Source: Gemmatimonadota bacterium (GTDB lineage: Bacteria > Gemmatimonadota > Gemmatimonadetes > Gemmatimonadales > GWC2-71-9). Taken from it: DNA of 64,000 nucleotides. Each line of letters opens with the position of its first letter. Within the stretch, counting starts at the first letter, position 1. The stretch lies in NCBI GenBank assembly GCA_031402225.1, contig JANNSD010000152.1, positions 395 to 64,394 on the forward strand. Reading direction: 5' to 3'. Of this stretch, positions 2,540 through 47,601 are shown piece after piece. The position numbers and the translations under genes were made by a program. The notes under the pieces are model-generated. The model worked only from the letters and a program-made list of their open reading frames with translations, was not told where the DNA came from and searched no databases.

Positions 2540-3097
2540 ATGAATCCAAGCTTCCTCGCCTCCAGCCACTGCGCCGGCATCGGCCGCCGCTTCTTCCAGC
2601 AGCTCCGCGCCACCCTCGAACGTGAGGTTGGTGTACAGACCGCCGCGTACCTGCAGGAAGCAGGGTTCGCTGGTGGCGCCGAGCTGTACGGTGCCTACGC
2701 CGCGTGGCTGAAGGAAACCTACCAGCTCGCCGATCCGGGCGACCTCGACCAGGCCTTCCTGAGCGAGGTGCTCTCACGCTTCTTCTCGGAAATCGGCTGG
2801 GGCCCATTGACGGCGCGCCCGCTGGGCGATGCCGTGCTGGCCCTCGATGCCATCGAGTGGGCGGAGGCCGGCGAGCCGGGCTCGAGCGAGTATCCCTCCT
2901 GTCATGTGAGTTGCGGCATGCTCGCGGAGTTCTTCGGCCGGCTGTCAGGCCAGGTCACCGCCGTCATGCAGGTTGAGTGTCCCTCCCGGGGGGACCCGCG
3001 AGCCCGGTTCCTGGCTGGCGCTCCCGAGACCCTGGGCGCGATCTACGACCGCATGTCGCAGGGCATGGCATACGGCGAGGCGCTGGGACTTGCGTGA
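2540..3097 (+). CDS. V4R (4-vinyl reductase) domain protein
   Basis: IGWG, SCHVSCGMLAEFF and VECPSRGDPRARF match the V4R small-molecule-binding domain pattern. Confidence 0.75.
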   Translation: MNPSFLASSHCAGIGRRFFQQLRATLEREVGVQTAAYLQEAGFAGGAELYGAYAAWLKETYQLADPGDLDQAFLSEVLSRFFSEIGWGPLTARPLGDAVLALDAIEWAEAGEPGSSEYPSCHVSCGMLAEFFGRLSGQVTAVMQVECPSRGDPRARFLAGAPETLGAIYDRMSQGMAYGEALGLA

Positions 3098-3167
3098 CGT
3101 GAGGACGTGAGGACGTGAGGACGTGAGGACGTGAGGACGTGAGGACGTGAGGACGTGAGGACGTGAG
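3096..3167 (+). repeat. Octamer tandem array (GACGTGAG)x9
   Basis: Nine perfect copies read directly; the first overlaps the TGA stop of the V4R gene. Confidence 0.98.
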
Positions 3168-3174
3168 CCAGAAT

Positions 3175-3202
3175 GTCATCCTGAGCGCAGCGAAGGATCT
3201 AC
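3175..3202 (+). repeat. REP-like short palindromic element GTCATCCTGAG...CGAAGGATCTAC
   Basis: ATCCT/AGGAT inverted repeat; a second copy lies at 14485-14520 on the minus strand. Confidence 0.75.
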
Positions 3203-3218
3203 CTGCAGGCGTTGGGAG

Positions 3219-4901: not shown

Positions 4902-4907
4902 GCGTCC

Positions 4908-5915: not shown

Positions 5916-5978
5916 CGAACCTCCGGCCATTGTGGGTTACGGGGCCTTAGACGGGAGGGGGTGGTGAAAGGTTGCACG

Positions 5979-8647: not shown

Positions 8648-8657
8648 GGCGCTATGA

Positions 8658-9164: not shown

Positions 9165-9190
9165 AGAGACTCCGGGGAAGGTGACAGTGA

Positions 9191-9205
9191 GCAAGCAGGG
9201 TGCCG
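9191..9205 (-). promoter_or_regulatory. Putative sigma-54 (-24/-12) promoter for the PRTase-tldD-tldE operon
   Basis: Minus strand reads CGGCAC-CCTGC-TTGC against consensus TGGCAC-N5-TTGC, 26 bp upstream of the ATG. Confidence 0.65.
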
Positions 9206-14470: not shown

Positions 14471-14484
14471 CACAAGACCTTTGC

Positions 14485-14520
14485 GTAGATCCTTCGGGCG
14501 CTGCGCGCCCTCAGGATGAC
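14485..14520 (-). repeat. REP-like palindromic element, second copy
   Basis: Minus strand GTCATCCTGAGGGCGCGCAGCGCCCGAAGGATCTAC has the same ends as 3175-3202 and a longer inner stem. Confidence 0.75.
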
Positions 14521-14528: not shown

Positions 14529-14584
14529 CTCACGTCTTCACGTCCTCACGTCCTCACATCCTCACGTCCTCACGTCCTCACGTC
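14529..14584 (-). repeat. Octamer tandem array, 7 copies (CTCACGTC on +)
   Basis: Read directly, with two single-base variants; overlaps the SDR stop codon. Confidence 0.97.
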
Positions 14585-15278
14585 AGACCGGCCCCAGCCG
14601 CAGCCAGTCCACATGGACGTTCGCCGGGCGCGTCGCGACGAACAGCACCGCCTCCGCTACGTCGCCCGGCCGCAGCATGCTGGCCCGATCGGGAAGGTGG
14701 GGCTGGCGATCGGGATCGATGGGATCCCACACGCCGGTGTCGGTGGGGCCGGGAGACACCAGGCAGAGCCGAACGCCGCTGCCCCGGAACTCGGCCGCCA
14801 GGACCTCGTGCAGCCCGCGCAACCCGAACTTGGACGCGGCGTAGGCGGCATTGTCCGGAAACGCCGAGTGATCGGCGACACTGCCGATGTGCACGAAGGT
14901 GCCGCGCCCGGCCGCGCGCATGGCCGGCAGCAGTGCCCGGGCCACGGCGAACGGTGCCCGCAGGTTGATGTGCACCTGCGCGTCGAAGTCGTCCTGCGTC
15001 GTGTCGTGGAGCGGCTTCATGATGAATGCGCCGGCATTGCTGACCACGATATGGGGGGGACCCAGCTCGGTGAGGAGGCGCGTGGCCGCGGCGTGCCAGG
15101 CGGCGGCATCGGTCAGGTCGCAGGGAACGTCATGGAAGACGCTGCCGCGCACTGCGGGCAGCGACCGGGCAATGCGCACCACCCGGGCGCCGGCGCTCGC
15201 GAGCACGGCCGCTATCGCGGCACCGATGCCGCGCGAGGCACCGGTGACGACGGCAACCTGTCCCGCGAGGTCGCTCAC
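14583..15278 (-). CDS. Short-chain dehydrogenase/reductase (candidate sepiapterin-reductase-like)
   Basis: [17 protein letters not shown]; translationally coupled to folE. Confidence 0.9.
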
Positions 15279-15859: not shown

Positions 15860-16250
15860 AGTTCCTCGGAGTTTCCCAGAGACGAACACTCAGCGCCAGC
15901 TCGGCGGGCACGGCCTCGCGCAGCTGGCGCCAGATCACGACGGCGAGATTCTCGGAGGTCGGGTTGAGGTTCACAAACCAGGCGACGTCGAGATTGAGGT
16001 TCTTGTGGTCGAGGTGCCGCAGCACCCGATCCTCCGTCACCTGCTTCAGCGTATTCAGGTCCAGCACGTAGCCCGAGTCGGGGTTGATCTCGCCCTCGAC
16101 GCTGATATCCAGCTCGTAATTGTGCCCGTGAAAATTGGGATTGTTACAGACACCGAACGTCGCCACGTTCCAGGCGTCCGATCGGTCAGGATTGTGCAGG
16201 CGATGAGCGGCATTGAAGTGCACACGGCGCGTCACGCGGCATCTCGGCAT
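15837..16250 (-). CDS. 6-pyruvoyl-tetrahydropterin synthase family (PTPS-II-type CX5HGH motif)
   Basis: [39 protein letters not shown]. Confidence 0.92.
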
Positions 16251-16259
16251 GGAGCAGCC

Positions 16260-16325
16260 TCGGCGTTTGAGTATGCAGTAGGCACCCCGTGGTGCCCATC
16301 AAGTTCCCCGGAAAGCAAACGCCGA
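16260..16325 (-). promoter_or_regulatory. Candidate structured 5' leader (three-way junction) of the PTPS-folE operon
   Basis: Perfect 10-bp stem TCGGCGTTTG/CAAACGCCGA encloses a GGCACC/GGTGCC hairpin and a TTCC/GGAA mini-stem; the 3' arm abuts the GAGG RBS. Confidence 0.4.
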
Positions 16326-16351
16326 CCCCGCATGGAGCCGGCGCTTACCTG

Positions 16352-16510
16352 AAGAAACGGCGACGGAGAGGGTTACTGAAGCCCAACCGGAATGCTCGGC
16401 ACCCTCGTCATGGCTTTTGTCTTCCCCCGAGGGGCATGGCAGCAGCCACAATATCTGGGCCCTGGGCCTAACTTATCGGCTCGATAACGTAGATCCCCGC
16501 CACCGACACC
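16352..16510 (-). ncRNA. ssrS: Probable 6S RNA
   Basis: Long rod-like fold: closing stem CGGTGGCGGGGA/TCTCCGTCGCCG (G-U pairs work only on this strand), GTTAT/GTAAC, GAGCC/GGCTT, central bubble, TGTGGCT/AGCCATG. GAGCCGATA as in enterobacterial 6S. Own sigma-70 promoter. Confidence 0.65.
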
Positions 16511-16514
16511 AACT

Positions 16515-16543
16515 AAGTTAGGACACGAAGCCCAGACCGTCAA
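16515..16543 (-). promoter_or_regulatory. Sigma-70 promoter TTGACG-N17-TAACTT
   Basis: Near-consensus -35/-10 with 17-bp spacing immediately upstream of the ncRNA. Confidence 0.75.
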
Positions 16544-16559
16544 CACAGGAACCAATCTC

Positions 16560-16733
16560 ATGAATCCCCTGCCGTCGCTGGTGGCTGCCGTGGTGGCCCT
16601 GATCGCCTGGACCTTTCTGGTGTTCGTGCGGCAAGTGCCAAGCGGGCTCCCGCACGGGCTGTACGCGGTGGGGATCCTGCTTCTGGTACGGTGGCTGGTG
16701 CTGCGGCCAGGAGGTGAGGACGTCAGGACGTGA
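16560..16733 (+). CDS. Small 57-aa membrane protein (absent from ORF track)
   Basis: MNPLPSLVAAVVALIAWTFLVFVRQVPSGLPHGLYAVGILLLVRWLVLRPGGEDVRT; AGGA RBS; two hydrophobic segments. Confidence 0.65.
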   Translation: MNPLPSLVAAVVALIAWTFLVFVRQVPSGLPHGLYAVGILLLVRWLVLRPGGEDVRT

Positions 16734-16833
16734 GGACGTGAGGACGTGAAGTGACTAGCGGACTGGTGCCCCGTGCCCTCACGTCTTCACGTCTTCACGT
16801 CTTCACGTCTTCACGTCTTCACTTCCTCACGTC
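16711..16833. repeat. Inverted pair of octamer arrays (5 copies +, 27-bp spacer, 7 copies -)
   Basis: 16711-16750 GACGTGAG-type and 16778-16833 YTCACGTC-type, between convergent genes. Confidence 0.95.
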
Positions 16834-17782
16834 ATATTTCCCAGTTCGACATCAAGATCCCGTCCGTCTCCGGCTCCGGCGCATCGGACAGGGTCATCCG
16901 CAGGTCGGTCCAGTGCACGCGGAAGCCCCGCCCAACGAGATGCGCGTACGCGCTGCTGGCGGCGGTCTGGCAGCGAATGGCGACGCGCCGCAAGCGTGCC
17001 GCAATGGCGTCGGCCTGGAGTCCGTCGACCAGGCGCTCGAACGCCGCGGCATCGGTGGCCACGAGCTTGAGCACGCGCTGTTCATCGCGCGGGCGACCGG
17101 CCGCGAGCGGCGTCGACTGCCACAGCGCGAAGGCGACCAGCCGGCTGCCACGGCGCACCATCGTGGTATCTCCCAGGGCCATCTCGTGGGTCAGCAGGAG
17201 TTCGCGGGAAAAGTCGATTCCCGGCGCCACGCGCGCCGTAAGCTCGGCACATTCCGCGACCCCGGCGGCGAGATCGCCGGTCGAGAGCCGGGACGCATCC
17301 CGTGCGACCGCGCGTACGGCGTCGCGCAGCAGCGTGATCGTGAGGTGCCGCGGCACGAACCCCAGGGTGCCGTAGAACCCGATGTTGTCGGTCGTGCGCG
17401 GCATGGTCTCGAGGCCGATGGTCGTAGCTCCGCGAGCGCGGAGCAATTCGATGCCGGCCTGGACGATCGCGCTTCCCACGCCAGCGCCCTGCCGGTCGGG
17501 GCGGACTGCAATCGGGCCCATCCAGCCCTCGGTGCCCGACTGGTGCACCATGTTGAAGGCCGCGAGCTGGCCATCGGAATCGCGCCACAACATGGCGCCC
17601 TCGGCGGCATCCTCGATGGCGTAGCGCCACACCGCCGCCGTGAGCGGCGGCACCCGGACACCGGACAGGCCATCGCGCGCATAGCGATCGGTGAAGGCCT
17701 CGGTGAACAGCCGGTTGAGCGGCTCCACGTCGTCACCCGTGGCCCGGTCGGGCCCGTGCACGCTGCGGTCAGGCCGCCACAT
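16832..17782 (-). CDS. GNAT family N-acetyltransferase
   Basis: IAVRPDRQGAGVG acetyl-CoA motif and NIGFYGTLGF; overlaps the rad50 3' end. Confidence 0.85.
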   Translation of the reverse strand: MWRPDRSVHGPDRATGDDVEPLNRLFTEAFTDRYARDGLSGVRVPPLTAAVWRYAIEDAAEGAMLWRDSDGQLAAFNMVHQSGTEGWMGPIAVRPDRQGAGVGSAIVQAGIELLRARGATTIGLETMPRTTDNIGFYGTLGFVPRHLTITLLRDAVRAVARDASRLSTGDLAAGVAECAELTARVAPGIDFSRELLLTHEMALGDTTMVRRGSRLVAFALWQSTPLAAGRPRDEQRVLKLVATDAAAFERLVDGLQADAIAARLRRVAIRCQTAASSAYAHLVGRGFRVHWTDLRMTLSDAPEPETDGILMSNWEI

Positions 17783-20192
17783 CGTGCCCGCCCAGGGGTT
17801 CGTCGGCGACAACCGCGGAGCCGCGGCGCGCATCGTACGTGACGCGAACGATGCGGTCGAAACCGTCGCGCACCGAATCGATATGGGTGATGAGGATCAC
17901 CTGCGGGAAGCGGTCGGCGAGGCTGCGGAGCAGCTCCACCACGGCGGCGCGATGATCGTCGTCCAGGGAGCCGAAGATCTCGTCGAGAATCAGGAGGGAG
18001 AGCGGCTGCCCGGCGCGCTCGGCGATCATCTGGCTGATGGCCAGCCGCAGGGCCAGGTTGGCGATGTCCTCCTCGCCGCCCGAAATGACACCCTTGGGCT
18101 CACCCTCATCCAGCAGCGTGGTCACATAGTCCTCATCGAGCTCGAGCTCGGTATAGCGTCCATTGGTCAGGTCGCGCAGGAACACCGAGGCCAGTTCCGA
18201 CAGGTCGGGACGCAGCGCGGCGTTCAACTCGTTTCGCAGGTCGCCCAGGGCGCGATCCAGCTCCTGGTTCGTCTTCAACGACAGCGCCACCGCATCGGCC
18301 TCGCGCGCGCGACGCGCCCGGTCCTCGATCCGTCGTGCCGCCTGGAGCGTGGCCTCCTTCGCCGCGGTCGCCTCGCCCTCGTCGCGCACCAGCGTGAGCG
18401 CGGCGGCCTGCCGCGCCGCCTCCGACGCCCGCCACTCGCGCTCCACCGTGCGGAAACCCTCCTCGCTGAAGCCCAGGGCGGCCAGCGCCGTCCGCATGCC
18501 GTCATGACGCGATTCGGCCTCGAGCCGCGCCGTGTCCGCGCCGGCCTGCTGGTCCCTGAGCAGCGGAAGCCGATCGGCCCCGACCCGCTGGCGTTCGAGC
18601 TCCAGTGCCAGCGGATCGAGCCGCTTCAGCTCGGACTGTACCTGCTCATGGCGTGACTGATCGTACACCGTGCCGGGGAGCGCCGCGAGATCCACCTCAA
18701 TTCCCGCCAGCCGGGCGTCCAGCTTCTGGACTTCCTCTCGCCAGCGCGCCGTTTCGGCCAGCGATGCCGCCAGCCGGGCCTGCGCCGCGTTCCCCTCCTC
18801 GAGCTGGCGCTTGAGCGCCTGCATCTGTTCCTCGAGCTGCACGACCTCCGGCGGCACATCTTTCAGCTGCTCGATGCGCTGCTTGTAGAAGCTGCCGTTG
18901 AAGGTGACCTCCTCGATCTGCCGGTCGAGCACGCCCAGCACCGACTCGAACTCCTGGCCCAGCGGCCGCGCGCACGTGGGGCACGCACCCTCCTGGCCGG
19001 CCTCCACGATTCGCTCACGCTGCTCGACCAGTTCCCGGTACTGGTCGGCCAGGCCCTCGCGCTTGGTGGTCGCCGCCTGGGCGTCCTGCACCCAGAGCGT
19101 GCGTCGCGCCTCCAGCGCCTCGAGGCTGAAGTCCAGCGCCTGTCGCACGGTGATGATGGACGCCTGGGCCCGCTCCAGCGTCTCCGCCTCCGGTGCCTTC
19201 TTGATCTGCTTCGCCAGCTCGGCCTTGCGCTGCGTCACTTCCTTACGCTGCGCACCCAGTGCCGCGCGGCGCGCGTTGCCCTCCGCGTCGCGCGTGAGGG
19301 CGCCCGCCTCCTCACGCAGCGACAGCCGCGGTGCCAGTGCCACTTCCAGTTCCGCCACTCGTTGCGCCGCTGCTGCCGCCGCCGCCAGGTCTGCCGTCAG
19401 CCGCGCCAGTGTCTGCCGGGTGGTCTCCGCGACCTGTTCCGCCAGGCGCAGGTCGCTCTCCAGTGTCGCGGCCGCCACCTTCTGCTGCTGGGCCATCTCC
19501 CAGCGCGGGCCCAAGGCGGCAGCCTGGGACTCGGCCGCCTTCACCTGCGTCCGGGCCAGCGTCACTCGTGCGTCGGCGGTGGCCAGCCGCTCGGCGGCCG
19601 CCTTCACCGCCGCCTCGAGCACGTCGGGATCCGGCAGCCCGGCGCGGAGCGCGTCGAGCTGGGCGCGCAGGCTGGCGCGCTCGACCTTGAGCCGATCCTG
19701 GCCAACGCGCAACCGCTCGTACCCCAGCACCCGCGACAGGAACGTGGCGCGCTCGGAGGCGGTCATCGCCGCCATGACCGCGAGCTCCTTCTGTCCGGTG
19801 AAGTAGGTATTGAAGAACTCGTCCCGGCTCATGCCAATGAGCCGCGTGACGCGTTCCGTCACGCTGCCGATGCTGTTGGCGATCGGCGCCGCCTCACTGT
19901 CCTGATACAGCTCGGCCCCGCCCAGGGTGCGCAGGATGCGGTAGTTGTGGGCACCGAGCGAGAAATCCAGCTCCACCTCGACCTTCGAACGGGGTGTCGC
20001 GCCGCGGCGGCGGATGGTTTCGCGGTTGCCGCGAGCGGCCGGCATGCCATACATCGCCCAGGCAATGGCCTCGAGCAGCGTGGTCTTGCCCGCTCCGTTG
20101 GGCCCCACGATCCCGGTCAGCCCGCTGCCGAACACCAGTTCGGTGGACTCGTGCTGCCGGAAGTTCTGCAGCCGCAGGCGGTGGATGATCAC
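17769..20192 (-). CDS. Rad50/SbcC-type SMC ATPase
   Basis: LRLQNFRQH, Walker A GPNGAGKTT, zinc hook CPTC, signature ISGGE, Walker B LILDE, ITH. Confidence 0.95.
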   Translation of the reverse strand: MIIHRLRLQNFRQHESTELVFGSGLTGIVGPNGAGKTTLLEAIAWAMYGMPAARGNRETIRRRGATPRSKVEVELDFSLGAHNYRILRTLGGAELYQDSEAAPIANSIGSVTERVTRLIGMSRDEFFNTYFTGQKELAVMAAMTASERATFLSRVLGYERLRVGQDRLKVERASLRAQLDALRAGLPDPDVLEAAVKAAAERLATADARVTLARTQVKAAESQAAALGPRWEMAQQQKVAAATLESDLRLAEQVAETTRQTLARLTADLAAAAAAAQRVAELEVALAPRLSLREEAGALTRDAEGNARRAALGAQRKEVTQRKAELAKQIKKAPEAETLERAQASIITVRQALDFSLEALEARRTLWVQDAQAATTKREGLADQYRELVEQRERIVEAGQEGACPTCARPLGQEFESVLGVLDRQIEEVTFNGSFYKQRIEQLKDVPPEVVQLEEQMQALKRQLEEGNAAQARLAASLAETARWREEVQKLDARLAGIEVDLAALPGTVYDQSRHEQVQSELKRLDPLALELERQRVGADRLPLLRDQQAGADTARLEAESRHDGMRTALAALGFSEEGFRTVEREWRASEAARQAAALTLVRDEGEATAAKEATLQAARRIEDRARRAREADAVALSLKTNQELDRALGDLRNELNAALRPDLSELASVFLRDLTNGRYTELELDEDYVTTLLDEGEPKGVISGGEEDIANLALRLAISQMIAERAGQPLSLLILDEIFGSLDDDHRAAVVELLRSLADRFPQVILITHIDSVRDGFDRIVRVTYDARRGSAVVADEPLGGHDVAA

Positions 20193-23359: not shown

Positions 23360-23376
23360 GGCACCAAAGCTAACTA

Positions 23377-23502
23377 CGTGAGGAGGAACGACGACTGCGT
23401 GAGGAGGAACGGCAACGGCGTGAGGAGGATCTGAAACTGCGGGGGATCCCCGCCGTCGCCGTTCCTCCTCACGCCGTTGCAGTTCCTCCTTACGCCGTTG
23501 CC
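23377..23502. repeat. Inverted pair of 21-bp tandem repeats around a short palindrome
   Basis: Three CGTGAGGAGGAACGGCAACGG-like units (23377-23439), CGGGGGATCCCCG, then about 2.4 reverse-complement units (23453-23502). Confidence 0.9.
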
Positions 23503-24413
23503 TTGAGAAACTCCTCCACACTCCGGATCCCGTACAGCATCCGATCCCAGCGCGGGTCGGGAGCACTGATCGGCGCCCGCTCGGCCAGGAGCCAGCGGGA
23601 GATCTGGTCGGCCATCGCCGGAGTGCCGTTGACCGGGGCCACCTCCACCCGGATGAGCCCGTGCAGCAGGTCCTTCCCTTCCCAGGGCCAGAGGCGCACC
23701 GCCCACGCACGCACCGGGGCGAGGCGCCGCGACGCCGGCGCGAAGATGGGAGAGCGATGCCCCACGGGGAGCCGCAGGTAGGCCTCGAGGTCGCTGCCGT
23801 CGAACGGGAGCGAGCTGTGACTCTTCGCCACCCCGATCATCCGGGGATCCTGGGCCCACACCGGGCTCTCGGCCAGCGAGCCATCCACCACCAGCCACCC
23901 GCGGCTCCCTTCCCGATACGCAATTCCGACGGACACCTCGAGCGCGCCACGCGCGTCGTCGAGCGCCGCGCCCGCCTGGGCCAGCTCGCGAATGGGGTGG
24001 GGCGGGTCCGCATCGGACAGTTCGATGTGCTCCAGCGACTCGAGCGCCGCGCCCGCCGCGTCCAGCGCCGCGCGACGACCGATCACCAGATCGCGCCGTC
24101 GAACCACCCGGGTGGCGAGCACCCGATCCGTGCGTTCCCGGACGGCCGCCGCCACCGACGCCACGACGATCGGCGATGACCCGGCATAGCCGACGACCTG
24201 GGAATGCTGGACCCCGTCCAGAAAGGCGACCGGTTCGGGCCAGCCGGTGGGTGCTCCAACCGGCCGCGCCGCCACGTGGTCGCCTTCGAGCAACTGTGCG
24301 AGGTGGATCTCGGCTGCCTCGCGCCGGCCAGCACTGGCGGGAGGGATGATGGATGCGGGGGTAATGCCTGCAGCGGCCAGCGCGCGACGAAGGGCGGTGA
24401 GGTCGTTAGTCAT
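23490..24413 (-). CDS. nurA: NurA-like 5'-3' nuclease
   Basis: AFLDG, LVVDGSL, IGVAKS, C-terminal ...EEFLK; adjacent to herA. Confidence 0.75.
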   Translation of the reverse strand: MTNDLTALRRALAAAGITPASIIPPASAGRREAAEIHLAQLLEGDHVAARPVGAPTGWPEPVAFLDGVQHSQVVGYAGSSPIVVASVAAAVRERTDRVLATRVVRRRDLVIGRRAALDAAGAALESLEHIELSDADPPHPIRELAQAGAALDDARGALEVSVGIAYREGSRGWLVVDGSLAESPVWAQDPRMIGVAKSHSSLPFDGSDLEAYLRLPVGHRSPIFAPASRRLAPVRAWAVRLWPWEGKDLLHGLIRVEVAPVNGTPAMADQISRWLLAERAPISAPDPRWDRMLYGIRSVEEFLKATA

Positions 24414-26125: not shown

Positions 26126-26280
26126 TCCGGAGTTAGGGCGAAAGCACGGCGACGCGGACCGGGAAGGTTCGTTCGCGACCTGCTCCCTGTCAACGCCATA
26201 CGCCCTTGGCCCCCGCCACTGGCCGGGCTAGCTTGATTTCCCGCGACAGTCGCGACCGCTATTTGAGAATCGAGGAGCCC

Positions 26281-27759
26281 GTGTCGGAGCTTGAGCTGCA
26301 CCTGAGCGCGCCCGTGGCGCGCACCCTGGAGTCGTGGGACTGGCAGGCGTCCGACCCGCTCATGCGCGATGCCGTACCCACCGTGGCCCGGGGTCACAAC
26401 CTGGTGGCCGTCCTGCCGCCGTCGCCGGCGGCGGCCGCCCCCCTCATCGGGGCAGTGCTCGGTCGCCTGGGCGGCGGGGTGCGAGGGCTCATGGTGGTGC
26501 CGCCCGGCATGCTGGCCGAGTGGGCCGGCGTCGTGTTCGGGGTCGCCGCCGGCACCGGTCTCAAGGTGGGCGCCGCGCTCGCCTCCGCCCGCGCACTCCG
26601 CGAACTCCGCACCGGCTCCCTCGATCTCCTTGTGGCCTCCCCATCGGTCATCCAGGAACTCATGACCAGTTCCGCCCTCAAGGCGGATGGCCTCGGCGTG
26701 ATTGTGCTCGCCCAGCCCGAGGCCTGGGCCGATCACGCCGCCGTCGCGCCGCTGATGCAGGACCTGCCCCTCGAGGCGCAACGGGTCATCCTCACCGCGA
26801 ACCCGGCGGCGGCGGCCGAAGTGGTGGAGCGGTATGCCCGGAAGGCGCTGGTGCTCGGCGTGCCGCCGACCGAAGCACCGCCCATGCAGCCGGTCGGCCC
26901 GGTGCGCACGGTAAGCGTGGCGTGGTCGCGTCGCGCGGCGGCGCTGGGCGAGCTGTTGCAGCTCCTCGATCCAGCCACCGTCTCCATCTGGGCGCACGAC
27001 CGGAGTGCCGCCGCGGAGATCGCGCGAGCAGTCCCCATCGACGGCGAGTCCATCCGTCTGGTCACCGGCGATGCACCGAAGTCCAGCCTTGTCATCGCGT
27101 TCGACCTCCCCTCACATGAGCGGCTCGCGCAGCTGGTCCAGGCGGGTGATACGGTGCTCCTCGTGCCACCGGGCACCGAGTCGTACGTGGCGGGCATCGC
27201 CCGGCCGACGCGAGCCCTGCGCCTCCCGGGCCTGCTGGAGGAGCATGCGGCCATCTCCACCGCCGACCGAGCTCGTATTCGCGCCGAGCTCGAGTCGGGC
27301 GACGGGTCGGCAGCGCTCCTTGCCCTCGCACCGCTGTTCGAGCGGCATGACCCGACGAGGGTGGCCGCGGCACTCTATGCGCTCTGGAAGGGACAAGAGC
27401 GGCAGGAGCGGCAAGGCGGCAAGGCGGCAGGGCGGCAGGAGGAAGCGACAGCTCCCGCGCCGGCGCCGGCGATTGCGAAGGTGTGGGTTTCGATCGGGAA
27501 GAAGGACGGGGTGACACCCGCCGACCTCGTTGGCGCCCTGACCAAGGAGTTGCGGGTGGACCGGACCGCGATCGGACGGGTTGAACTGCGCGACGGGTTC
27601 TGCCTGATCGACCTGCCCGCAGCGGATGCCGACCGGATTGCTCAGGCGCTGAGCGGGAAGATGATCCGGAAGGTCCGGGTGACGGCGCGGCTCGACCGGG
27701 TGCCCGGGGCGAGCACGGACCGCCGGCCTAGGAGCGGCGCCGGACGACCGCGTCCTTGA
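26281..27759 (+). CDS. Degenerate DEAD-box-helicase-like protein with C-terminal DbpA RNA-binding domain
   Basis: C-terminal IGKKDGVTPADLVGAL...IGRVEL; N-terminus colinear with the DeaD RecA1 domain but lacking motifs; GAGGAG RBS. Confidence 0.75.
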   Translation: MSELELHLSAPVARTLESWDWQASDPLMRDAVPTVARGHNLVAVLPPSPAAAAPLIGAVLGRLGGGVRGLMVVPPGMLAEWAGVVFGVAAGTGLKVGAALASARALRELRTGSLDLLVASPSVIQELMTSSALKADGLGVIVLAQPEAWADHAAVAPLMQDLPLEAQRVILTANPAAAAEVVERYARKALVLGVPPTEAPPMQPVGPVRTVSVAWSRRAAALGELLQLLDPATVSIWAHDRSAAAEIARAVPIDGESIRLVTGDAPKSSLVIAFDLPSHERLAQLVQAGDTVLLVPPGTESYVAGIARPTRALRLPGLLEEHAAISTADRARIRAELESGDGSAALLALAPLFERHDPTRVAAALYALWKGQERQERQGGKAAGRQEEATAPAPAPAIAKVWVSIGKKDGVTPADLVGALTKELRVDRTAIGRVELRDGFCLIDLPAADADRIAQALSGKMIRKVRVTARLDRVPGASTDRRPRSGAGRPRP

Positions 27760-28151: not shown

Positions 28152-28757
28152 ATGTATCAGGGATCGCGCACCGGATGGCTCGAGGTGGTCTCGGGGGTCA
28201 TGTTCAGCGGCAAGAGCGAAGAGCTCATCCGCCGGGTCCGCCGCGCCATCATTGCCCGCCGCACCGTGCAGGTCTTCAAGTCCCACCTCGACAGCCGGTA
28301 CGCCGGCGTCTATAGCGTCAGTAGCCACGACGGCACCGAGCTCGAGGCGATCCCCGTCGATTCCTCGGACGAGATTCTGCGACAGGTGCGGCCTGCCACG
28401 GAGATCGTCGCGATCGACGAGGCGCAGTTTCTCGACCGCGATATCGTCGCGGCGACAGCACTCCTGGCACAGCGCGGGGTACGCGTCATCCTGGCGGGCA
28501 CCGATACCGACTTCCGGGGGGAGCCGTTCGGTGCCATGGGCGACCTGATGGCCGTGGCCGAGCTGGTGGACAAGCTCCGCGCCATCTGCATGGTGTGCGG
28601 CGGCGAGGCGTGCCGGAACCAGCGACTGGTGGACGGTCGCCCGGCGCGCTGGGATTCCCCAACCATCATGGTGGGCGGCCGCGAGTCGTACGAGGCCCGT
28701 TGCCGGCATTGTCATCGGGTGCCGAGGGCGGACGAAGATCAGACGGCGTTGCTGTAG
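28152..28757 (+). CDS. tdk: Thymidine kinase
   Basis: [33 protein letters not shown]. Confidence 0.97.
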
Positions 28758-28781
28758 GACGTGAGGACGTGAGGACGTGAG
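28758..28781 (+). repeat. Octamer array (GACGTGAG)x3, left boundary of the four-helix-bundle cassette
   Basis: Begins immediately after the tdk TAG. Confidence 0.95.
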
Positions 28782-28793: not shown

Positions 28794-29180
28794 CTAGTTC
28801 AGTGGCCGGACGCCACCAAGACTGCGAAACAAGCCCCACACCAAGCGACCGGCGTGGTCGACCGCCGCGGTTAGTTCGGCGATGCCTTCAGGAGGCAGAT
28901 ACCCGAGCTCCTCGCACAGGCGGATCTGGTACCTGAGTTCGTTGAATGAGGCGAGCGCAATTCCGAGGAACCGTCGAAATTCCTGCTTGCCCGGCCGCAT
29001 TGAACCCTCCACAATATTCGAGGCGATCGAGACTGCGGCTCGGCGCATTTGCGAAGTGAGCCCGAACCGTTCATCGGACGGCAACATCTTGGTAGTTTGA
29101 TAGACGCAAAGCGCTAGCTGGTGCGAGGCCCGCCATGCCTCGAGCTTCTCAAAGCGAGGGGATAATGCGTTGGCTGACAT
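28794..29180 (-). CDS. Four helix bundle protein (23S rRNA IVP / TIGR02436 family, Avd-like fold)
   Basis: FEKLEAW, LPSDERFGLTSQMRRAAVSIASNIVEG, EFRRFLGIALASFNEL, LGYL. Confidence 0.95.
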   Translation of the reverse strand: MSANALSPRFEKLEAWRASHQLALCVYQTTKMLPSDERFGLTSQMRRAAVSIASNIVEGSMRPGKQEFRRFLGIALASFNELRYQIRLCEELGYLPPEGIAELTAAVDHAGRLVWGLFRSLGGVRPLN

Positions 29181-29242
29181 GGGACCAATCTGGGGCCGGA
29201 CGGGTGGAGGCGCAGCATCATTCGCACCCAGAGCGTGGTGTA

Positions 29243-29298
29243 TTCACGTCCTCACGTCCTCACGTCCTCACGTCCTCACGCCCTCACGTCCTCACGCC
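29243..29298 (-). repeat. Octamer array, 7 copies (CTCACGTC on +), right boundary of the cassette
   Basis: Ends exactly at the inferred TTG start of coaE. Confidence 0.96.
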
Positions 29299-29904
29299 TT
29301 GCTAAACGTCGCCCTTACCGGCAACGTCGCCGCTGGCAAGTCCACGGTCGCGAACCTGTTTCGGCGCTGGGGCGCGGTGGTCATCGACGCCGACCAGCTG
29401 GTGCGCGAGGTCCAGTCGCCAGGGCATCCGGTGCTCGGCGCCATCGTGCGCCGGTTCGGCCCCGGCGTGCTGCGCCCAGATGGCACCCTCGACCGCGGCC
29501 AGCTGCGTGCGGTGGTGCTGGCCTCGCCCGAGGCACTCGCGGAACTGAACGCGATGGTCCACCCAGCGGTCAGCCGACTCCGCACCGCGCGGGTGGCCGA
29601 AGCCCGCGAGGCCGGCGCACAGGTGGTCGTCACCGACATCCCGCTGCTGTTCGAGGCCGCCGACCCCGACTCGTTCGATGTGGTGGTGCTGGTCGATGCA
29701 CCCGATGACCTGCGCCGCCAGCGGCTTTTCGAGCGGAGTGGCCTGCCGCGCCACGAATCCGATCGCCTCATGGCGACGCAATTGCCGGCCGCAGTCAAGC
29801 GCCCGCGTGCCGACTATGTGATCGATAACGACAGCGATATCGCTGCCCTCGAGGCCCGCACCGCCGAGATCTGGGCCTCGCTGGCGGCCCGCGCGGTTCC
29901 TTGA
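29299..29904 (+). CDS. coaE: Dephospho-CoA kinase
   Basis: VALTGNVAAGKSTV, IDAD, LDRGQL, DIPLLFE, ADYVIDN. TTG start inferred. Confidence 0.96.
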   Translation: MLNVALTGNVAAGKSTVANLFRRWGAVVIDADQLVREVQSPGHPVLGAIVRRFGPGVLRPDGTLDRGQLRAVVLASPEALAELNAMVHPAVSRLRTARVAEAREAGAQVVVTDIPLLFEAADPDSFDVVVLVDAPDDLRRQRLFERSGLPRHESDRLMATQLPAAVKRPRADYVIDNDSDIAALEARTAEIWASLAARAVP

Positions 29905-30408: not shown

Positions 30409-30449
30409 GACCTCGCACGTTTTTTCACGAGTTGGAGCAAGAGGATAGC

Positions 30450-33413
30450 ATGACTGCCACCCATCGCCCCCCCGCTGGCGCCGCGCCCGAACCGGTGGAC
30501 GCCGCGGACGAGATTCGCTCGCACCGGATGCCCTCCTTCGAGGTGATGCATCCGAATCACTTCGCCTACCGCCACATCGGGCCACGCAAGGACGATGTGG
30601 CCGAGATGGTGAAGCTCCTGGGCTACGGGTCGCTCGATGACCTGATCGACGCGGTCGTGCCGGAGGATATTCGCCTGCGTCGGCCGCTTGACCTGCCGCC
30701 GGGCCGCGGCGAGCGGGAGGTACTGCAGGCGCTGCGCGGCATGGCCGACCAGAACCGGATCTTCCGCACGCACATCGGGATGGGGTACTACGGTACCTTC
30801 GTGCCGCAGGTGATCCAGCGGAATATTCTCGAGAATCCCGGCTGGTACACCGCCTATACGCCGTACCAGGCCGAGATCGCGCAGGGGCGCCTGGAAGCAC
30901 TGCTCAACTTCCAGACGATGGTCGCGGACCTGACCGGCTTGCCCATCGCGAATGCCTCGCTGCTGGATGAAGCGACGGCCGCCGCGGAGGCGATGGCGCT
31001 GACCCACGCGGTGGCGCCGCGGCACGACGCACCGGTGTATCTGGTCGACGCCGACTGCCATCCGCAGACCGTCGCGGTGGTGGTGACGCGCGCTGAGGCC
31101 CGCGGCGTGGCGGTAAAGGTGCAGTCGCCGGACCAGTTCGAGTTCGGGCCCGGGGTCATCGGCTGCCTCGTGCAATATCCGTCCACCGACGGCGCGCTGC
31201 GGGATTTCCGCGCAACTTGTTCCGCGGCGCACAGCGCGAAGGCGGTGGTGACCGCCGCCACCGACTTGCTCGCGCTGACGCTGCTCGTGCCGCCCGGCGA
31301 GTGGGGTGCCGACATCGCCGTCGGCAACAGCCAGCGCTTCGGCGTGCCGATCGGGTACGGCGGCCCGCACGCGGCGTTCTTCGCCACGAAGGACGAGTAC
31401 AAGCGGCATTTGCCTGGCCGTATCATCGGCGTGTCGAAGGACCGCGATGGGCACCCTGCGCTCCGCATGGCGCTGCAGACGCGGGAGCAGCACATCCGCC
31501 GCGAAAAGGCAACGAGCAATGTCTGCACGGCGCAGGTGCTGCTGGCGGTCATGGCCAGTATGTATGCCGTGTACCACGGGCCGGACGGCCTCCGCCGCAT
31601 CGCCGAACGGACGCATAACCGGGCCGTGATCCTCGCCAATGCCCTGCGCCGCCTGCGCTACCGGATCGTGCACGAGCATTTCTTCGACACGCTCTGTGTC
31701 GAACTGGAGCGCTGGGCGGTGCCGCGCATCGTGGATGCGGCACGATCGCGCCAGATCAACCTCCGGGTCATTTCACCGACCCGACTGGGCGTGGCCCTCG
31801 ACGAGACCACGAGCCTCGGCGACGTGGCCGACCTGATCGCGATCTTCTCGCTCAATGAGGCGCTGCCGTTCATGCTCGAGGATATCGGCGCTCCCGCGGA
31901 GCGCGCGATTCCCGCACCGCTGGCACGCACGAGTGCCTACCTCGCCCATCCCGTGTTCCACCAGCACCATTCAGAAACGGAGATGCTGCGGTACATCAAG
32001 CGACTCGAGGCGCGCGACCTCTCGCTGTGCCATGCGATGATCCCGCTCGGCAGCTGCACCATGAAGCTCAACGCCACCACCGAGATGATGCCGGTCAGCT
32101 GGCGCGGCTTCAACCGGATCCACCCCTTTGCCCCGCGCGACCAGGCCCAGGGCTACCAGGAGCTGTTCCGCCAGCTCGAGTACCAGCTCGACGAGATCAC
32201 CGGCTTCGCGCGGGTGTCACTGCAGCCCAATGCCGGCTCGCAGGGCGAGTACGCCGGCCTCATGGTGATCCGCGCCTACCATCACAGCCGCGGCGCCACC
32301 AACCGCACAATCTGCCTCATCCCCATGTCGGCGCATGGCACCAACCCGGCCAGTGCCGCGATGGTGGGCATGACCGTGGTGCCGGTGAAGAGCGATGTCG
32401 CCGGCAACATCGACATCGATGATCTCCGCGCCAAGGCGGCACAGCACGCCGACCACCTCGCGGCCCTGATGGTCACGTATCCGTCGACCCACGGCGTCTT
32501 CGAGTCGGGCATCCGCGAAATCTGCCGGATCGTGCACCAGCACGGCGGCCAGGTCTACATGGACGGGGCCAACATGAACGCGCAGGTGGGCCTCTGTCGC
32601 CCAGGCGACATCGGTGCGGATGTGTGCCACCTCAACCTGCACAAGACGTTCGCCATTCCGCACGGCGGCGGCGGGCCGGGCATGGGCCCGATCGGCGTGG
32701 CGGCTCACCTGGGCGCCTTCCTGCCGGATCACCCGGTGGTCGCCCTTGGTCACGACGCCAGCTGCGGCACGATCTCGGCGGCCCCATGGGGCAGCGCCGG
32801 TATCCTGCCCATCTCCTGGGCGTACATCAACCTGCTCGGGTACGATGGCCTGGCGGAATCGACCAAGGTCGCGATCCTCAACGCGAACTACATCGCCGCG
32901 CGGCTGGCACCGCACTATCCGGTGCTGTATTCCGGGCAGTATGGACTGGTGGCGCACGAGTGCATCATCGATACGCGCGGGTTCAAGCAGTCGGCGGGCA
33001 TTGAGGTCGAGGATATCGCCAAGCGGCTGATCGACTACGGGTTCCATCCGCCAACCGTCTCGTTCCCCGTTGCCGGCACGCTGATGATCGAGCCGACGGA
33101 GAGTGAATCGCTCGAGGAGCTCGATCGCTTCTGCGACGCGATGATCGCCATCCGCCAGGAGATCCGCGAGATCGAGGAGGGCGCGGCGCAGCGGGACAAC
33201 AACCTGCTCACCAATGCCCCGCACACCCTGCAGCAGGTGATCGGCGACCTCTGGAACCGGCCGTATCCGCGCGAACGGGCCGGGTTCCCGTCGGCCGCCG
33301 TGCGCGAATCGAAGGTGTGGCCCACGGTGGGCCGGATCGACGGGGCGTATGGGGACAGGAACTTGATCTGTACATGCGTTGGGATGGATGAGCTCGAAGA
33401 CGTGAAGACGTGA
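30450..33413 (+). CDS. gcvP: Glycine dehydrogenase (P protein, single chain)
   Basis: [54 protein letters not shown]. Confidence 0.98.
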
Positions 33414-33470
33414 GGACGTGAGGACGTGAAGAACTCCCCTCACGTCCTCACGTCCTCACGTCCTCACGCT
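33399..33470. repeat. Inverted pair of octamer arrays (4 copies +, 8-bp spacer, 4 copies -)
   Basis: 33399-33430 and 33439-33470; overlaps the gcvP end and the next gene's start. Confidence 0.95.
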
Positions 33471-39697: not shown

Positions 39698-39711
39698 ATG
39701 CGAGAGTCGGC

Positions 39712-40895: not shown

Positions 40896-40932
40896 CCACA
40901 CCGCTCGACGCCTTCGGCGGACGGGAATTCTC

Positions 40933-41757: not shown

Positions 41758-41764
41758 CCGGCGC

Positions 41765-42394: not shown

Positions 42395-42587
42395 CGAGAC
42401 TTTCCAGTGGTAGTCAGCATAGTAACGTCGCTCAGGCTCCATCGGATCCGGGCAGGGGGCTGTCCGAAACCCGCAGGGTGCCATGTCAATACTTGCGACG
42501 GAGCCACCTTAGTGTCTACCGTTGCGGACCTGATTTGTTCGCTGGCGCAGCGGCAACGGTTTTCAGCGTCCCGTTTCGGAGATCCGC

Positions 42588-45432: not shown

Positions 45433-45433
45433 G

Positions 45434-46909
45434 TCAGGTATGACCCTTCAGCTGGCAGGCCGTATCGACTCCCCGTCGCAGTTGCTCGAGCAGCGGGCCG
45501 GTTGCTCGCCAGCGCTCGATGGTCCAGGTTCGCTGTGGCCCGGTTGCCACCGCACTCCATCGCTCGTCGAGCCGTCTCGCCGCGTCGCACCGGGTGCTGG
45601 TCGGAAGGCCCTCGAGCACGCCCAGCGCCGCTGGTACGGCGCCGGCGCCAAGACTCGCGAGATACGGCGCGTCGAATGGCCGGCCCCGCTCGGCACGCCA
45701 CGCATTGACCCGCACGATCACCTGTTCCGGCCCCGCCACGTTCAGCAGCAGCAGCGTCGCGAGCGCTGCGCCAAGCGCGCCCGCGGAGAAACGGTCCCGG
45801 CGCGACCGCAGTACGCTCGCCGCGAACCATGCGAAGACGAACGCCAGCCACGCCATGAATACCGTGGTGAACAGCCGCTGCTCGGTGAGGCCGTACTCGC
45901 TGGTATAGATCGCCATCCGGAGCAGTGCCGATCCCAGAAGCCCTGTCAGGAGCATGAGCAGGCTGCGCGCCAGGAAGCGGAACCTTCGCCGGTCCCGCTC
46001 CGCCTGCTGGTCGGCAGCCCAGTCCGCCACGAGCAGCACCGGCAGCATGGCCGCCGACACCGTCACCAGCTCGAAGAAGCCGCGACGCGCATACTCCGAG
46101 AAGCTGAGGTCTGCCGTGCCGAGCACCACCGCGCGGCCGCCGAAGAGGTAGCGCGATTGGACCATGAGGAAGGCAAGAAAGAGGAGGGCGATAGGCGCCA
46201 GCGCCCCGACGATGAATGGCGAACTGGTCCGCCCGCCGGCAGGTGCCACCTCGGTGGGCGATGGCGCGCGCGTCAGGGCCCAGAGCAGGCCCGCACCGAA
46301 CCAGGAGAAGAGCAGGACTGGCAGGACATGCTGAACGACCAGCTCAGGATTGAAGAGACGCCCGAGGAGTTGCTCGAACACCGGGTCGGCGCTGCCAAGC
46401 AGAAGGCTGAACAAGAGCAACACCGGTGAGATGGCCACGATGCCGAATCCGGCGGCCCACGTCGATCTCGGCGAACGAGTCGGCGCAGGTCCGCGAACAG
46501 CGCCGAGGAGCGGCCATGCACCAAGGAGCGTTCCGCGCCCGGCGTGCAGCAGGCGGCGGACGAGATCACCGGTGTCACTGTCCAGAACGCGCGCCAGCAG
46601 GCCAACGCGAACGGGGCGGGCAAAGCCGACGAGACCGGCGAGCGCCAGCAGGTTGACGGCAAACAGCGCCTCCGAATCCCGCCAGATCAGCGCGATCATC
46701 AGCAGGATGGCGGGGACGCCCAGCAGGACCCGGTCGGATTCGGGAACATGCAGGAGACCGCGGCGGCTCACGACCGCCAGCACGATGAATAGCAGCCCGA
46801 ATCCGAGCGCCACGTCCAGGCGCCCCGGCACCGACTGCTGCAACATCCGCCAGCCGACGCCCAGCACGATGCCGCCTCCCAGGAGGAACGGCGCGACCCG
46901 GCCGCGCAT
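45434..46909 (-). CDS. DUF4153/DUF4173 family membrane protein
   Basis: LLGSADPVF, SEYARRGFFEL, YGLTEQR, D..YL..L. Confidence 0.8.
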   Translation of the reverse strand: MRGRVAPFLLGGGIVLGVGWRMLQQSVPGRLDVALGFGLLFIVLAVVSRRGLLHVPESDRVLLGVPAILLMIALIWRDSEALFAVNLLALAGLVGFARPVRVGLLARVLDSDTGDLVRRLLHAGRGTLLGAWPLLGAVRGPAPTRSPRSTWAAGFGIVAISPVLLLFSLLLGSADPVFEQLLGRLFNPELVVQHVLPVLLFSWFGAGLLWALTRAPSPTEVAPAGGRTSSPFIVGALAPIALLFLAFLMVQSRYLFGGRAVVLGTADLSFSEYARRGFFELVTVSAAMLPVLLVADWAADQQAERDRRRFRFLARSLLMLLTGLLGSALLRMAIYTSEYGLTEQRLFTTVFMAWLAFVFAWFAASVLRSRRDRFSAGALGAALATLLLLNVAGPEQVIVRVNAWRAERGRPFDAPYLASLGAGAVPAALGVLEGLPTSTRCDAARRLDERWSAVATGPQRTWTIERWRATGPLLEQLRRGVDTACQLKGHT

Positions 46910-47532
46910 CAGCTCGACACCGAGTCGGACGTCAGGGCAATACCACTGCGCCGCTGGACGAAAATGTTGTCGGGCCCGGGGATGGCATACGCCGGCCATC
47001 CCTGCCAGGTACCGACGAGGCGCAGCCCGGTGGCGGATGCCGGCACGGCGAAGTGGAGCGTGCGCTCGTAGGAGTCGCCCGGACCGAGCGGTGTATTGAG
47101 CGTCATCGAATCGGCGGGATATCGCGTGCCGTTCGCGTCGACCACCGACAGCGTCACGTAGCGCGGATCCTCCAGCGCCTCGCGCGCATCGCTGCGCGCA
47201 CGCATGGTCACGTCGACCCCACCATTGCGGGCCACGTGCGTGGCCGTGAGGTGGAGGTGGCAGTCGAAGCCACAGAAGGCGAGCTCCTGTCCCGGCGTGA
47301 GGGCGCGCCGGCCGAGCAGCGGCGGACCGGCGAGGAGCAGTGCTCCGTAGACGCCCAGCAGCGCCAGTCCGATCATCCCCGATCGACGGGCCAACTCGGC
47401 ATTGCCCCGCACGAGGCCGAAGGCCGCGACCAGCAGCGCGCCGGTGATGGAGGCAGCGAGCGTAAGGAATGCCGCGAGGCCCCCGAGTCGCAACAGCAGT
47501 CCCAGCGTGGTATCCGGATCGATTCGCAGCAT
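46909..47532 (-). CDS. Hypothetical membrane-anchored protein
   Basis: Two TM segments then a beta-rich domain with CGFDCH; GAGGAGG RBS. Confidence 0.65.
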   Translation of the reverse strand: MLRIDPDTTLGLLLRLGGLAAFLTLAASITGALLVAAFGLVRGNAELARRSGMIGLALLGVYGALLLAGPPLLGRRALTPGQELAFCGFDCHLHLTATHVARNGGVDVTMRARSDAREALEDPRYVTLSVVDANGTRYPADSMTLNTPLGPGDSYERTLHFAVPASATGLRLVGTWQGWPAYAIPGPDNIFVQRRSGIALTSDSVSS

Positions 47533-47553
47533 GACGACCTCCTCAGCAAGTAC

Positions 47554-47601
47554 TTCACGTCCTCACGTCCTCACGTCCTCACGTCCTCACGTCTTCACGT
47601 C
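47554..47601 (-). repeat. Octamer array, 6 copies (YTCACGTC on +)
   Basis: Read directly; contains the regulator's stop codon. Confidence 0.96.

Follow-up and report, generated by a model that had tools for sequence, protein, structure and literature searches.

Results

Octamer arrays at the ends and starts of genes

The stretch of DNA analysed here, referred to as the window, covers 64,000 nucleotides (nt) of contig JANNSD010000152.1 from a soil-dwelling Gemmatimonadota bacterium of the order Gemmatimonadales and contains nine tandem arrays of the octamer GACGTGAG, designated A1 to A9, at the ends and starts of genes. An initial annotation, made from the letters of the sequence alone, had placed nine (GACGTGAG)n arrays in the window, and all nine were found at these positions in a probe search and with Tandem Repeats Finder (TRF), which returned period-8 arrays of 3.9–9.0 copies with contiguous 8-nt units. 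A two-unit probe with up to two mismatches allowed gave 42 matches in the window, every one within the nine array intervals, compared with 0.10 expected and a maximum of 2 in shuffled windows. The window has a G+C content of 68% and is about 95% coding according to the open reading frame (ORF) calls of this analysis, and the nine arrays account for 11% of the 3,266 bases between its genes. They occupy seven of the 28 junctions of at least 30 nt, namely two of two convergent, four of 18 co-directional and one of eight divergent junctions.

Seven arrays touch a stop codon and all seven read GACGTGAG in the sense of the gene that ends there; six of these genes carry a Pfam domain, as assigned by Pfam searches of the window proteins (sets of 25 and 41), and the seventh is a small ORF with a counterpart in a relative. 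In agreement with the initial annotation, the TGA overlaps a unit or lies within one in six of the seven. It overlaps the first unit (tGAC) in three cases: A1 (3096-3167, plus strand, nine perfect GACGTGAG units) follows the V4R gene (2540-3097, plus) and is succeeded 51 nt downstream by the start of an amidohydrolase gene; A2 (14529-14584, minus, seven units) follows the SDR gene (14583-15278, minus), with an M23 peptidase gene downstream on the same strand; and A4 (16778-16833, minus, seven units, mostly GACGTGAA) begins at the native TGA of the GNAT gene (16832-17833, minus). The TGA lies inside a unit in the other three. The stop of the small ORF (16560-16733, plus), at 16731-16733, falls within A3 (16711-16750, plus, five units), which is paired with A4 in inverted orientation; the final four residues (DVKT) of gcvP (30432-33413, plus) are specified, together with its TGA, by A7 (33399-33430, plus, four units); and A9 (47554-47601, minus, six units) contains the TGA of a winged helix-turn-helix gene (47595-47981, minus) in its first unit, with the next gene starting 21 nt downstream behind a GAGGAGG motif. 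The exception is tdk (28152-28757, plus), whose TAG stands directly before the first unit of A5 (28758-28781, plus, three units). A5 also sits 12 nt past the stop of a convergent gene of the 23S_rRNA_IVP family.

The remaining two arrays lie close to start codons. A6 (29243-29298, minus, seven units) occupies the divergent spacer between the 23S_rRNA_IVP-family gene and coaE, has the CTCACGTC reading on the coaE strand and directly abuts the TTG start of coaE (29299). A8 (33439-33470, minus, four units) is the inverted partner of A7 across an 8-nt loop and has the CTCACGTC reading on the mRNA strand, with about 6 nt left between its end and the lipB/LplA start. Inverted array pairs are predicted to fold as long hairpins (−64 kcal/mol with a z score of −8.9 for A7/A8, and −84 kcal/mol with a z score of −8.6), and the single arrays A1 and A2 are predicted to be unstructured (folding z scores of 0.12 and −1.29). 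No Rfam family matched at the gathering score anywhere in the window, and at E ≤ 1 the region around A3/A4 gave only spurious matches to microRNA-precursor hairpins. Elsewhere in the window the genes are typical chromosomal ones, among them ligA, tldD/pmbA, sbcCD-like genes, those of an opp-type transporter and cydAB.

The small ORF ended by A3 has 57 codons, a hydrophobic core and no Pfam match, and an ORF at the same site in the relative also ends in the orthologous array. It is probably a real small membrane protein.

Distribution in relatives and conservation at orthologous junctions

A genome scan with three perfect units as the criterion gave at least 87 loci. Among the 87 matches listed, 53 are from Gemmatimonadales/Gemmatimonadota, in 12 assemblies, with at least 21 loci on one 3.5-Mb contig of a syntenic relative and at least 13 in another relative genome. 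The remaining 34 listed matches are labelled as Streptomyces and further Actinomycetota, Roseateles, Paraburkholderia, Marinobacterium, Akkermansia, Thermoanaerobaculia, Kofleriaceae and additional taxa, and as three metagenome-assembled genomes (MAGs) of Bacteroidota, of which two have three loci apiece; these cross-phylum matches are raw counts. One of the 34 (loci are designated by L numbers here) is a 2,190-nt contig of an Actinomycetes-labelled MAG (L062) that is 99.8% identical to window positions 28849-29455 with an identical array; judged by this identity, it probably belongs to the Gemmatimonadales species of the window and was mis-binned.

A sample of 66 arrays was analysed further: the nine of the window together with 57 from the 48 Gemmatimonadales loci that have flanks of 2 kb. 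Five short loci (L081-L084, L087) were excluded, as was L062, which duplicates the window. One and the same unit fills at least these 66 arrays, which excludes independent slippage at each locus, as the initial annotation had argued. 

The arrays of the window were compared with the orthologous junctions of the syntenic relative on the 3.5-Mb contig, as the initial annotation had proposed. The two genomes are about 82% identical at the DNA level, and four-fold degenerate sites in eight shared genes are 50–68% identical, which is near saturation for this composition; despite this, orthologous arrays are about 95% identical. Arrays are kept at A2, A3, A5 and A6. The A6 ortholog (L061) has seven units in both genomes, with three differences over 56 nt and shared GGCGTGAG variants at the coaE end, and the spacer beside it cannot be aligned. 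A3 has five units in both genomes (L052), A5 has three in the window and four in the relative (L061), and A2 has seven in the window and three in the relative (L051). A4 is absent from the orthologous site of the relative, where the GNAT end (...SNWEI-TGA-C) is kept and followed by eight unrelated bases. Other orthologous pairs among the relatives have 4/4 and 4/6 units at the same junction, and paralogues and orthologues of a kinase gene have 4, 4, 4 and 4+3 units. The arrays are thus real, dispersed and kept at orthologous junctions across near-saturated synonymous divergence.

Unit sequence and stop codon content

The 66 arrays comprise 348 units, of which 231 are GACGTGAG, 51 are GACGTGAA, the main variant as initially annotated, and 20 are GGCGTGAG. 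The consensus unit is GRCGTGAR, with positions 3–7 (CGTGA) at least 97% invariant and the variation being R at positions 2 and 8. The commonest size of an array is four units (32 nt; 30 of 66 arrays, against eight with three and five with five units), the low end of this distribution being shaped by the search criterion of three perfect units. Outside the arrays of the window, GACGTGAG occurs 3 times (2.8 expected) and the GAA variant GACGTGAA twice (1.8 expected). Isolated units therefore occur at the chance rate and the family is present only as arrays; with isolated units at this rate and none of them at a gene end, the idea of solitary proto-units was rejected.

TGA and GTG are among the eight trinucleotides of (GACGTGAG)n, and because 8 and 3 share no factor, TGA occurs in all three frames within 24 nt. 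The complementary reading (CTCACGTC)n has eight trinucleotides without a stop codon and without ATG, GTG or TTG, and the same holds for the GAA variant. An ORF that enters an array in the GACGTGAG direction must therefore end there, and one that enters in the CTCACGTC direction reads through. The rule that arrays touching a stop codon read in the sense of the gene is thus partly true by construction, from the stop content of the unit itself.

Orientation of arrays relative to genes

The coding strand of the flanks was scored by codon usage, ignoring ORF ends. Of the 66 arrays, 29 were classified as sense-only, 13 as antisense-only, 10 as both and 14 as neither (29 versus 13, binomial p = 0.02); 39 arrays follow a gene in sense and 23 face a gene 3' end in antisense, the overlap being the 10 that lie between convergent genes. 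The 13 antisense-only arrays comprise three inside kinase genes, three partners of inverted pairs, five clean intergenic cases, one that truly lies before a start codon and one that faces an uncalled small ORF. At the protein level, Pfam-supported genes end at or in an array in sense in 28 Gemmatimonadales arrays and in 12 arrays from other phyla (40 of 81 ORFs), the latter from Bacteroidota, Acidobacteriota, Proteobacteria and Actinomycetota, and a Pfam-supported gene faces an array in antisense alone in five cases (73 ORFs). The orientation rule of the initial annotation therefore holds in part: the sense excess is present in the larger sample, but some of it is built in by the TGA content of the unit. 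Sense orientation at gene 3' ends, in which the purine-rich strand of the array is the sense strand of the preceding gene, is a strong tendency, not a law. The pyrimidine-rich orientation is met instead directly before start codons or in frame within genes.

Two general causes of orientation were considered and rejected. Orientation set by replication does not account for the arrays, because both strands are used (four plus, five minus) inside one domain of cumulative GC skew sign and, where two genes converge, each is followed by an array that reads in the sense of that gene. Nor are the arrays the extreme of a general purine-rich trend after stop codons, since the 16 array-less genes of the window with at least 40 nt downstream have a mean GC skew of −0.12 and 46% purine in that sequence.

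Contact with stop and start codons

The distance to the stop was determined by following the best coding frame to its first stop codon. Among the 39 sense arrays, 17 have the stop at −2 to 0 from the array start (11 at 0, with eight TAG and three TAA; two at −1; four at −2), 12 have it inside the array (−7, −15, −23 or −31), eight have it at +2 to +8 and two further away. The antisense arrays gave 18 positive distances, ranging from 3 to 63, with none at 0–2. Thirteen of the flush sense arrays use a native TAG or TAA that is not supplied by the TGA of the array, and the sense bias persists among arrays that lie wholly after native stops. The next start codon is 12–69 nt from the sense arrays.

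Arrays in the CTCACGTC orientation lie before Pfam-fixed starts of coaE (twice, 0 nt), aceK (0 nt), adenosine deaminase (3 nt), lipB (about 6 nt), an ABC ATPase (8 nt) and trigger factor (19 nt), two of them in the window (A6 at coaE and A8 at lipB) and five more in relatives. Arrays read in frame as CTCACGTC were also observed inside genes: in the linker after the kinase domain of four related Ser/Thr kinases (L009, L016, L050 and L073), in an enlarged Fpg loop (L072) and in a glycosyltransferase (L054). These in-frame arrays have stayed at four units across several genomes, and likewise in two paralogues separated by 7 kb. A change by one 8-nt unit inside an ORF would shift the frame, and the coding copies are fixed in size.

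Two cases bear on how the array ends a protein. In L051 a hairpin element is inserted between the SDR gene and the array, and the protein reads through it and ends at the internal TGA of the array. The GcvP tails of the best 120 homologues, compared at the protein level only, end in ...ELAGA or similar in the nearest clade, in ...ELEDVKT in the window and in ...ELEDVKA and ...MEDVART in two relatives; by their sequence, the last three tails are array-encoded, with the last codons replaced. The boundary between array and coding sequence shifts among these close GcvP relatives. Read at the sequence level, the L051 SDR gene and the GcvP tails show the array working as a putative fail-safe stop.

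A near-perfect hairpin (−17 to −36 kcal/mol), in several cases with a T-rich tail, lies within 27 nt downstream of about 12 of the 66 arrays. These arrays therefore appear to be 3' untranslated sequence between the stop codon and a terminator-like hairpin, with the others being intercistronic. Between convergent genes the layout of stop, sense array, hairpin, inverted array and stop was found in L014, L018 and L069. Inverted array pairs are present in six of the 48 relative loci, and the window holds two.

Discussion

A maintained, strand-asymmetric spacer as the favoured interpretation

Combining the conservation, orientation and contact data, we tentatively favour, though we put it a little short of an even chance, that the arrays are a maintained, strand-asymmetric family of transcribed spacers, and that constraints from translation and the compaction of the genome shape where they lie. 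With similar reserve, they may be regarded as a lineage-wide family that fills what little transcribed, non-coding sequence a very compact genome has. The arrays would be retained in mRNA as unstructured, strand-asymmetric spacers, and the sense strand, with TGA in three frames, would act as a fail-safe stop pad; because the TGA is present in every frame, deletions in the spacer, neighbouring insertions and encroachment on the last codons would be harmless. Deletion bias would push the array up against the stop codon, and the complementary strand, which lacks stop and start codons, would alone be tolerated against start codons or inside reading frames. A maintained array, deletion bias and a triple-frame stop would together suffice to put sense arrays at or in gene ends, where antisense arrays cannot lie, so that an insertion process aimed at stop codons would not be needed once compaction and the triple-frame stop are taken into account.

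The residual sense bias at 3' ends would, in the account we prefer, come from strand asymmetry at the RNA level. Sense RNA, being G-rich and C-poor, would be inert. Antisense array RNA contains 50% C and 12.5% G and may resemble a Rho-loading site, which would be harmful within operon transcripts and useful against convergent or antisense read-through. The family may have spread by recombination or template switching between arrays together with slippage, without a dedicated transposase.

Several points weigh against this interpretation. The orientation bias is modest: collapsing three orthologous duplicates leaves 26 versus 13 (p = 0.053), a strong bias (26 versus 5) appears only after coding copies, pair partners and one miscalled case are dropped, and 12 of the 39 sense arrays are sense by construction. 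Gene calls in the relatives come from our own codon-usage caller, and Pfam backs only part of them. Concerted evolution toward a shared consensus, and not selection at each locus, could be the source of the high identity between orthologous arrays, and the presence or absence of A4 together with the change of A2 between seven and three units means that arrays are gained, lost and resized. No mechanism accounts for the choice of this octamer or for its recurrence in Bacteroidota and other phyla, and the spacer, stop-pad and Rho utilisation (rut)-like functions are ones that we infer.

Alternative explanations

Possible, if on the doubtful side, is a selfish or neutral dispersed repeat without host function, comparable to repetitive extragenic palindromic (REP) sequences, miniature inverted-repeat transposable elements (MITEs) or microsatellites, whose pattern is the residue of purifying selection. 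Copies would arise anywhere and in either orientation, and those surviving would be the sense copies at gene ends and the open-frame copies in genes or before starts. Such a repeat would fit the in-frame coding copies in the kinase linkers, the Fpg loop and the glycosyltransferase, the presence or absence of A4 and the copy-number change of A2, the lack of any common functional theme among the array-bearing genes, the short-read contigs that end in arrays, and a small hairpin element found beside arrays in four of four copies, as if arrays were permissive landing sites. It fits less well with the same junctions and similar copy numbers kept across near-saturated synonymous divergence, with the sharp size peak at four units, with the sense bias that remains for arrays wholly after native stops and with the identical octamer in several phyla; nor does the window contain a transposase gene or one like the REP-associated tyrosine transposase (RAYT). 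Random insertion followed by nonsense trimming was considered as well and is not the whole story, because the entry frames are unequal (about 18, 7 and 4) and the GNAT stop is native.

An unlikely reading is that a universal machine such as Rho, RNA polymerase or the ribosome recognises the array as a directional signal at the RNA level, and that an array at the end of a gene acts as a one-way insulator. The sense transcript would be inert and carry stops in all frames, and the antisense transcript, in the CUCACGUC direction, would be a C-rich loading or pause site. Convergent and antisense transcription would thereby be stopped, allowing a 95%-coding genome to pack its genes tightly. If this is true, the same word after gene ends across phyla would reflect a conserved recognition rule and not chance.

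Still less probable is that the arrays are periodic binding sites, on the mRNA or the DNA, for a conserved machine or protein, for example the 16S rRNA 3' tail or a ring-shaped RNA-binding protein in the manner of TRAP or HutP, so that Shine-Dalgarno-like pads would hold post-termination ribosomes or a protein would read a triplet every 8 nt. The phase AGGACGTGA matches the ideal extended Shine-Dalgarno 9-mer at eight of nine positions and forms a duplex of −11.5 kcal/mol with a generic anti-Shine-Dalgarno tail, but this ranks an unremarkable 11th among 105 units of the same composition, and GACGTGAA loses most of the pairing (−5.3 kcal/mol) yet forms whole arrays such as A4. Shine-Dalgarno-like motifs precede only 18 of the 60 window genes, against a background of 15%. 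A universal partner would account for the recurrence across phyla, the invariant core and preferred size of four units fit a periodic site, and a second repeat family in the window (23360-23505) begins TAA|GGAGGAAC at a stop codon with the same inverted-pair architecture; against this, no candidate protein was identified, and the opposite-orientation copies at starts and in genes are equally conserved. The Shine-Dalgarno-like reading is thus a possible but weak, minor rival.

The initial annotation had offered two options for the placement, strong selection or targeting by insertion or templated addition at stop codons. Maintenance is borne out by the array identity of about 95% against 50–68% at four-fold sites; targeting, in the form of insertion or a telomerase-like templated addition, now appears quite improbable. 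Its best evidence is the flush contact of 17 of the 39 sense arrays, 13 with a native TAG or TAA, and the GNAT end, which is the same with the array in the window and without it in the relative and shares a GAC microhomology, so that A4 begins exactly at a pre-existing stop. Arrays of the opposite polarity, in the CTCACGTC orientation, are however flush with starts and lie inside genes, and in close GcvP relatives the boundary moves over the last codons. When the flanks of the 66 arrays were aligned at both boundaries, no common motif and no duplication were seen by eye, the left flanks included, and comparison of the filled and empty A4 sites revealed no target-site duplication. No transposase, reverse transcriptase or recombinase gene was present among the Pfam-scanned window proteins. 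The flushness itself is accounted for by compaction and the triple-frame stop of the favoured interpretation.

An assembly or sequencing artefact can practically be dismissed: some short-read contigs do end in arrays (L004, L026, L027, L036 and L071) and long arrays may be mis-sized, but the same arrays occur at orthologous sites in independent assemblies, including multi-megabase contigs, the independent contig L062 agrees with the window, and isolates from other phyla that have been sequenced carry arrays as well.

Comparison with known repeat systems

The octamer family seems to be unreported: a full-text literature search with the octamer, two-unit 16-mers and general terms returned no description of it, and the accessible part of a survey of short tandem repeats makes no mention of Gemmatimonadota, octamers or stop codons. 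Its closest analogues seem to be the short tandemly repeated repetitive (STRR) sequences of cyanobacteria and the REP sequences with their bacterial interspersed mosaic elements (BIMEs).

STRR sequences were reportedly described in heterocystous cyanobacteria by Mazel et al. in 1990. As with those, the arrays are numerous, small and dispersed, each built from head-to-tail copies of a single short unit and mostly lying outside genes, and the nine arrays in the 64-kb window and at least 21 and 13 loci in two relatives are a dispersed tandem distribution of the STRR type. STRR units are however heptamers of other sequence in cyanobacteria, whereas the present unit is an octamer in a Gemmatimonadales host. 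To our knowledge, gene-sense polarity, stop or start contact and conservation at orthologous junctions have not been described for STRR sequences.

REP sequences, BIMEs and REPINs (REP doublets forming hairpins) are abundant extragenic repeats of proteobacteria that can influence mRNA 3' ends, and the REP unit is an imperfect palindrome of 20–40 nt, RAYT-mobilised and lineage-specific in sequence. The octamer arrays resemble them in being extragenic, at gene 3' ends and between cistrons, and in forming inverted pairs that fold into long hairpins. They differ in that the octamer is non-palindromic and tandem, single arrays remain unfolded and only inverted pairs fold, and the octamer recurs across phyla. 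No RAYT (an IS200/IS605-like Y1 transposase) was found among the Pfam-scanned window proteins (25 + 41). Liang, Rudd and Deutscher are said to have shown in 2015 that the closeness of a REP sequence to the stop codon matters for translation.

Likeness to other systems is more limited. DNA uptake sequences and uptake signal sequences of Neisseriaceae and Pasteurellaceae are likewise short over-represented words that form inverted-pair terminators and use permissive frames in genes, but they occur singly or as one inverted pair and not as tandem arrays of 3–16 units. Phase-variable simple sequence repeats are short tandem repeats whose copy number can change by slippage, and such contingency repeats are found in promoters or 5' coding regions and differ from strain to strain; the octamer arrays, by contrast, have 7/7, 5/5, 3/4, 4/4, 4/6 and 7/3 copies between species-level relatives, which is not hypervariable, and 39 of 66 follow a gene 3' end and not a promoter or 5' coding region. 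Rickettsia palindromic elements, which are palindromic and about 100–150 nt long, are also dispersed repeats carried in frame inside protein genes, but they are not octamer arrays and lack stop-codon polarity. The repeats of CRISPR loci are 23–50 nt with unique spacers of similar length, whereas the octamer units are contiguous. Intrinsic terminators are GC-rich hairpins with a U tract behind them; inverted array pairs are predicted to be very stable hairpins, and single arrays are not hairpins themselves, though many have a separate strong hairpin after them. In contrast to MITEs and transposons the arrays have neither a target-site duplication nor a common flank motif.

Significance

REP and STRR sequences have been known for decades, and most dispersed short repeats have no agreed function. 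The octamer family is real, conserved and polar, and its function we infer. It offers a single 8-nt word, a measurable gene polarity, exact contact with stop codons one way and with start codons the other, preservation at orthologous junctions across near-saturated divergence and recurrence in other phyla as handles on such a function. If the polarity reflects an RNA-level function, the array would be a simple, portable element for studying gene insulation in compact genomes; if true, the same element would also bear on the tolerance of junction changes and the termination of stray translation and transcription. On the practical side, proteins acquire short array-encoded tails and low-complexity linkers, ORF callers are misled and assemblies from short reads break at arrays.

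Neighbouring elements and other features of the window

A small hairpin element, consisting of GTCATCCTGAG, a variable GC stem and GAAGGATC, occurs at 3173-3201 (plus) and 14483-14520 (minus) in the window, and in relatives at L051 (about 2024-2046) and L023 (about 1978-2000). Both window copies and the two clear copies in relatives lie 3–14 nt from an array with the GTCATCC end facing it, and 0.01 matches to the exact pattern are expected by chance in the window. Relative to the orthologous SDR array, the element is on one side in the window and on the other in the relative, and it therefore seems to be mobile and array-seeking.

The gene of the 23S_rRNA_IVP family, encoding a bAvd-like four-helix bundle (28794-29180, minus), lies between the mutually inverted A5 and A6, as it does in L061, and a fragment of another gene of this family was found beside an array in the unrelated locus L011 (about 1757-2386). 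These two independent cases might indicate an array-associated cassette. Other G-rich short tandem repeats (GCGGGTGG, GGGGTGAG, GACGTAGA, GGGACGTG and GGGAAGAG-like) stand directly beside arrays on the same strand at L015, L025, L032, L037, L059, L034 and L065, which suggests a wider class of purine-rich repeats after gene ends. The five short-read contigs named above begin or end in an array, and copy numbers of long arrays may be unreliable there.

The second repeat family at 23360-23505 is read in the sense of the minus strand, where the TAA of the gene at 23490-24413 is followed by 21-mers containing GGAGGAAC. Inverted copies of the 21-mer come next and extend until some 12 nt separate them from the ATG of the gene that follows, and the predicted hairpin has −94 kcal/mol (z score −11). 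Upstream of queD/folE, the non-coding region 16236-16550 is near-identical in the relative, with flanking genes about 80–85% identical. It had no Rfam match even at E ≤ 1, and its predicted folding gave z scores of −4.2 on the minus strand and −0.4 on the plus strand; it may be an undescribed structured RNA or leader. A different period-8 repeat (CAAGGCGG/GCGGCAGG, about five copies) is located at 27394-27439, within the gene 26233-27759, which encodes a DbpA RNA-binding domain.

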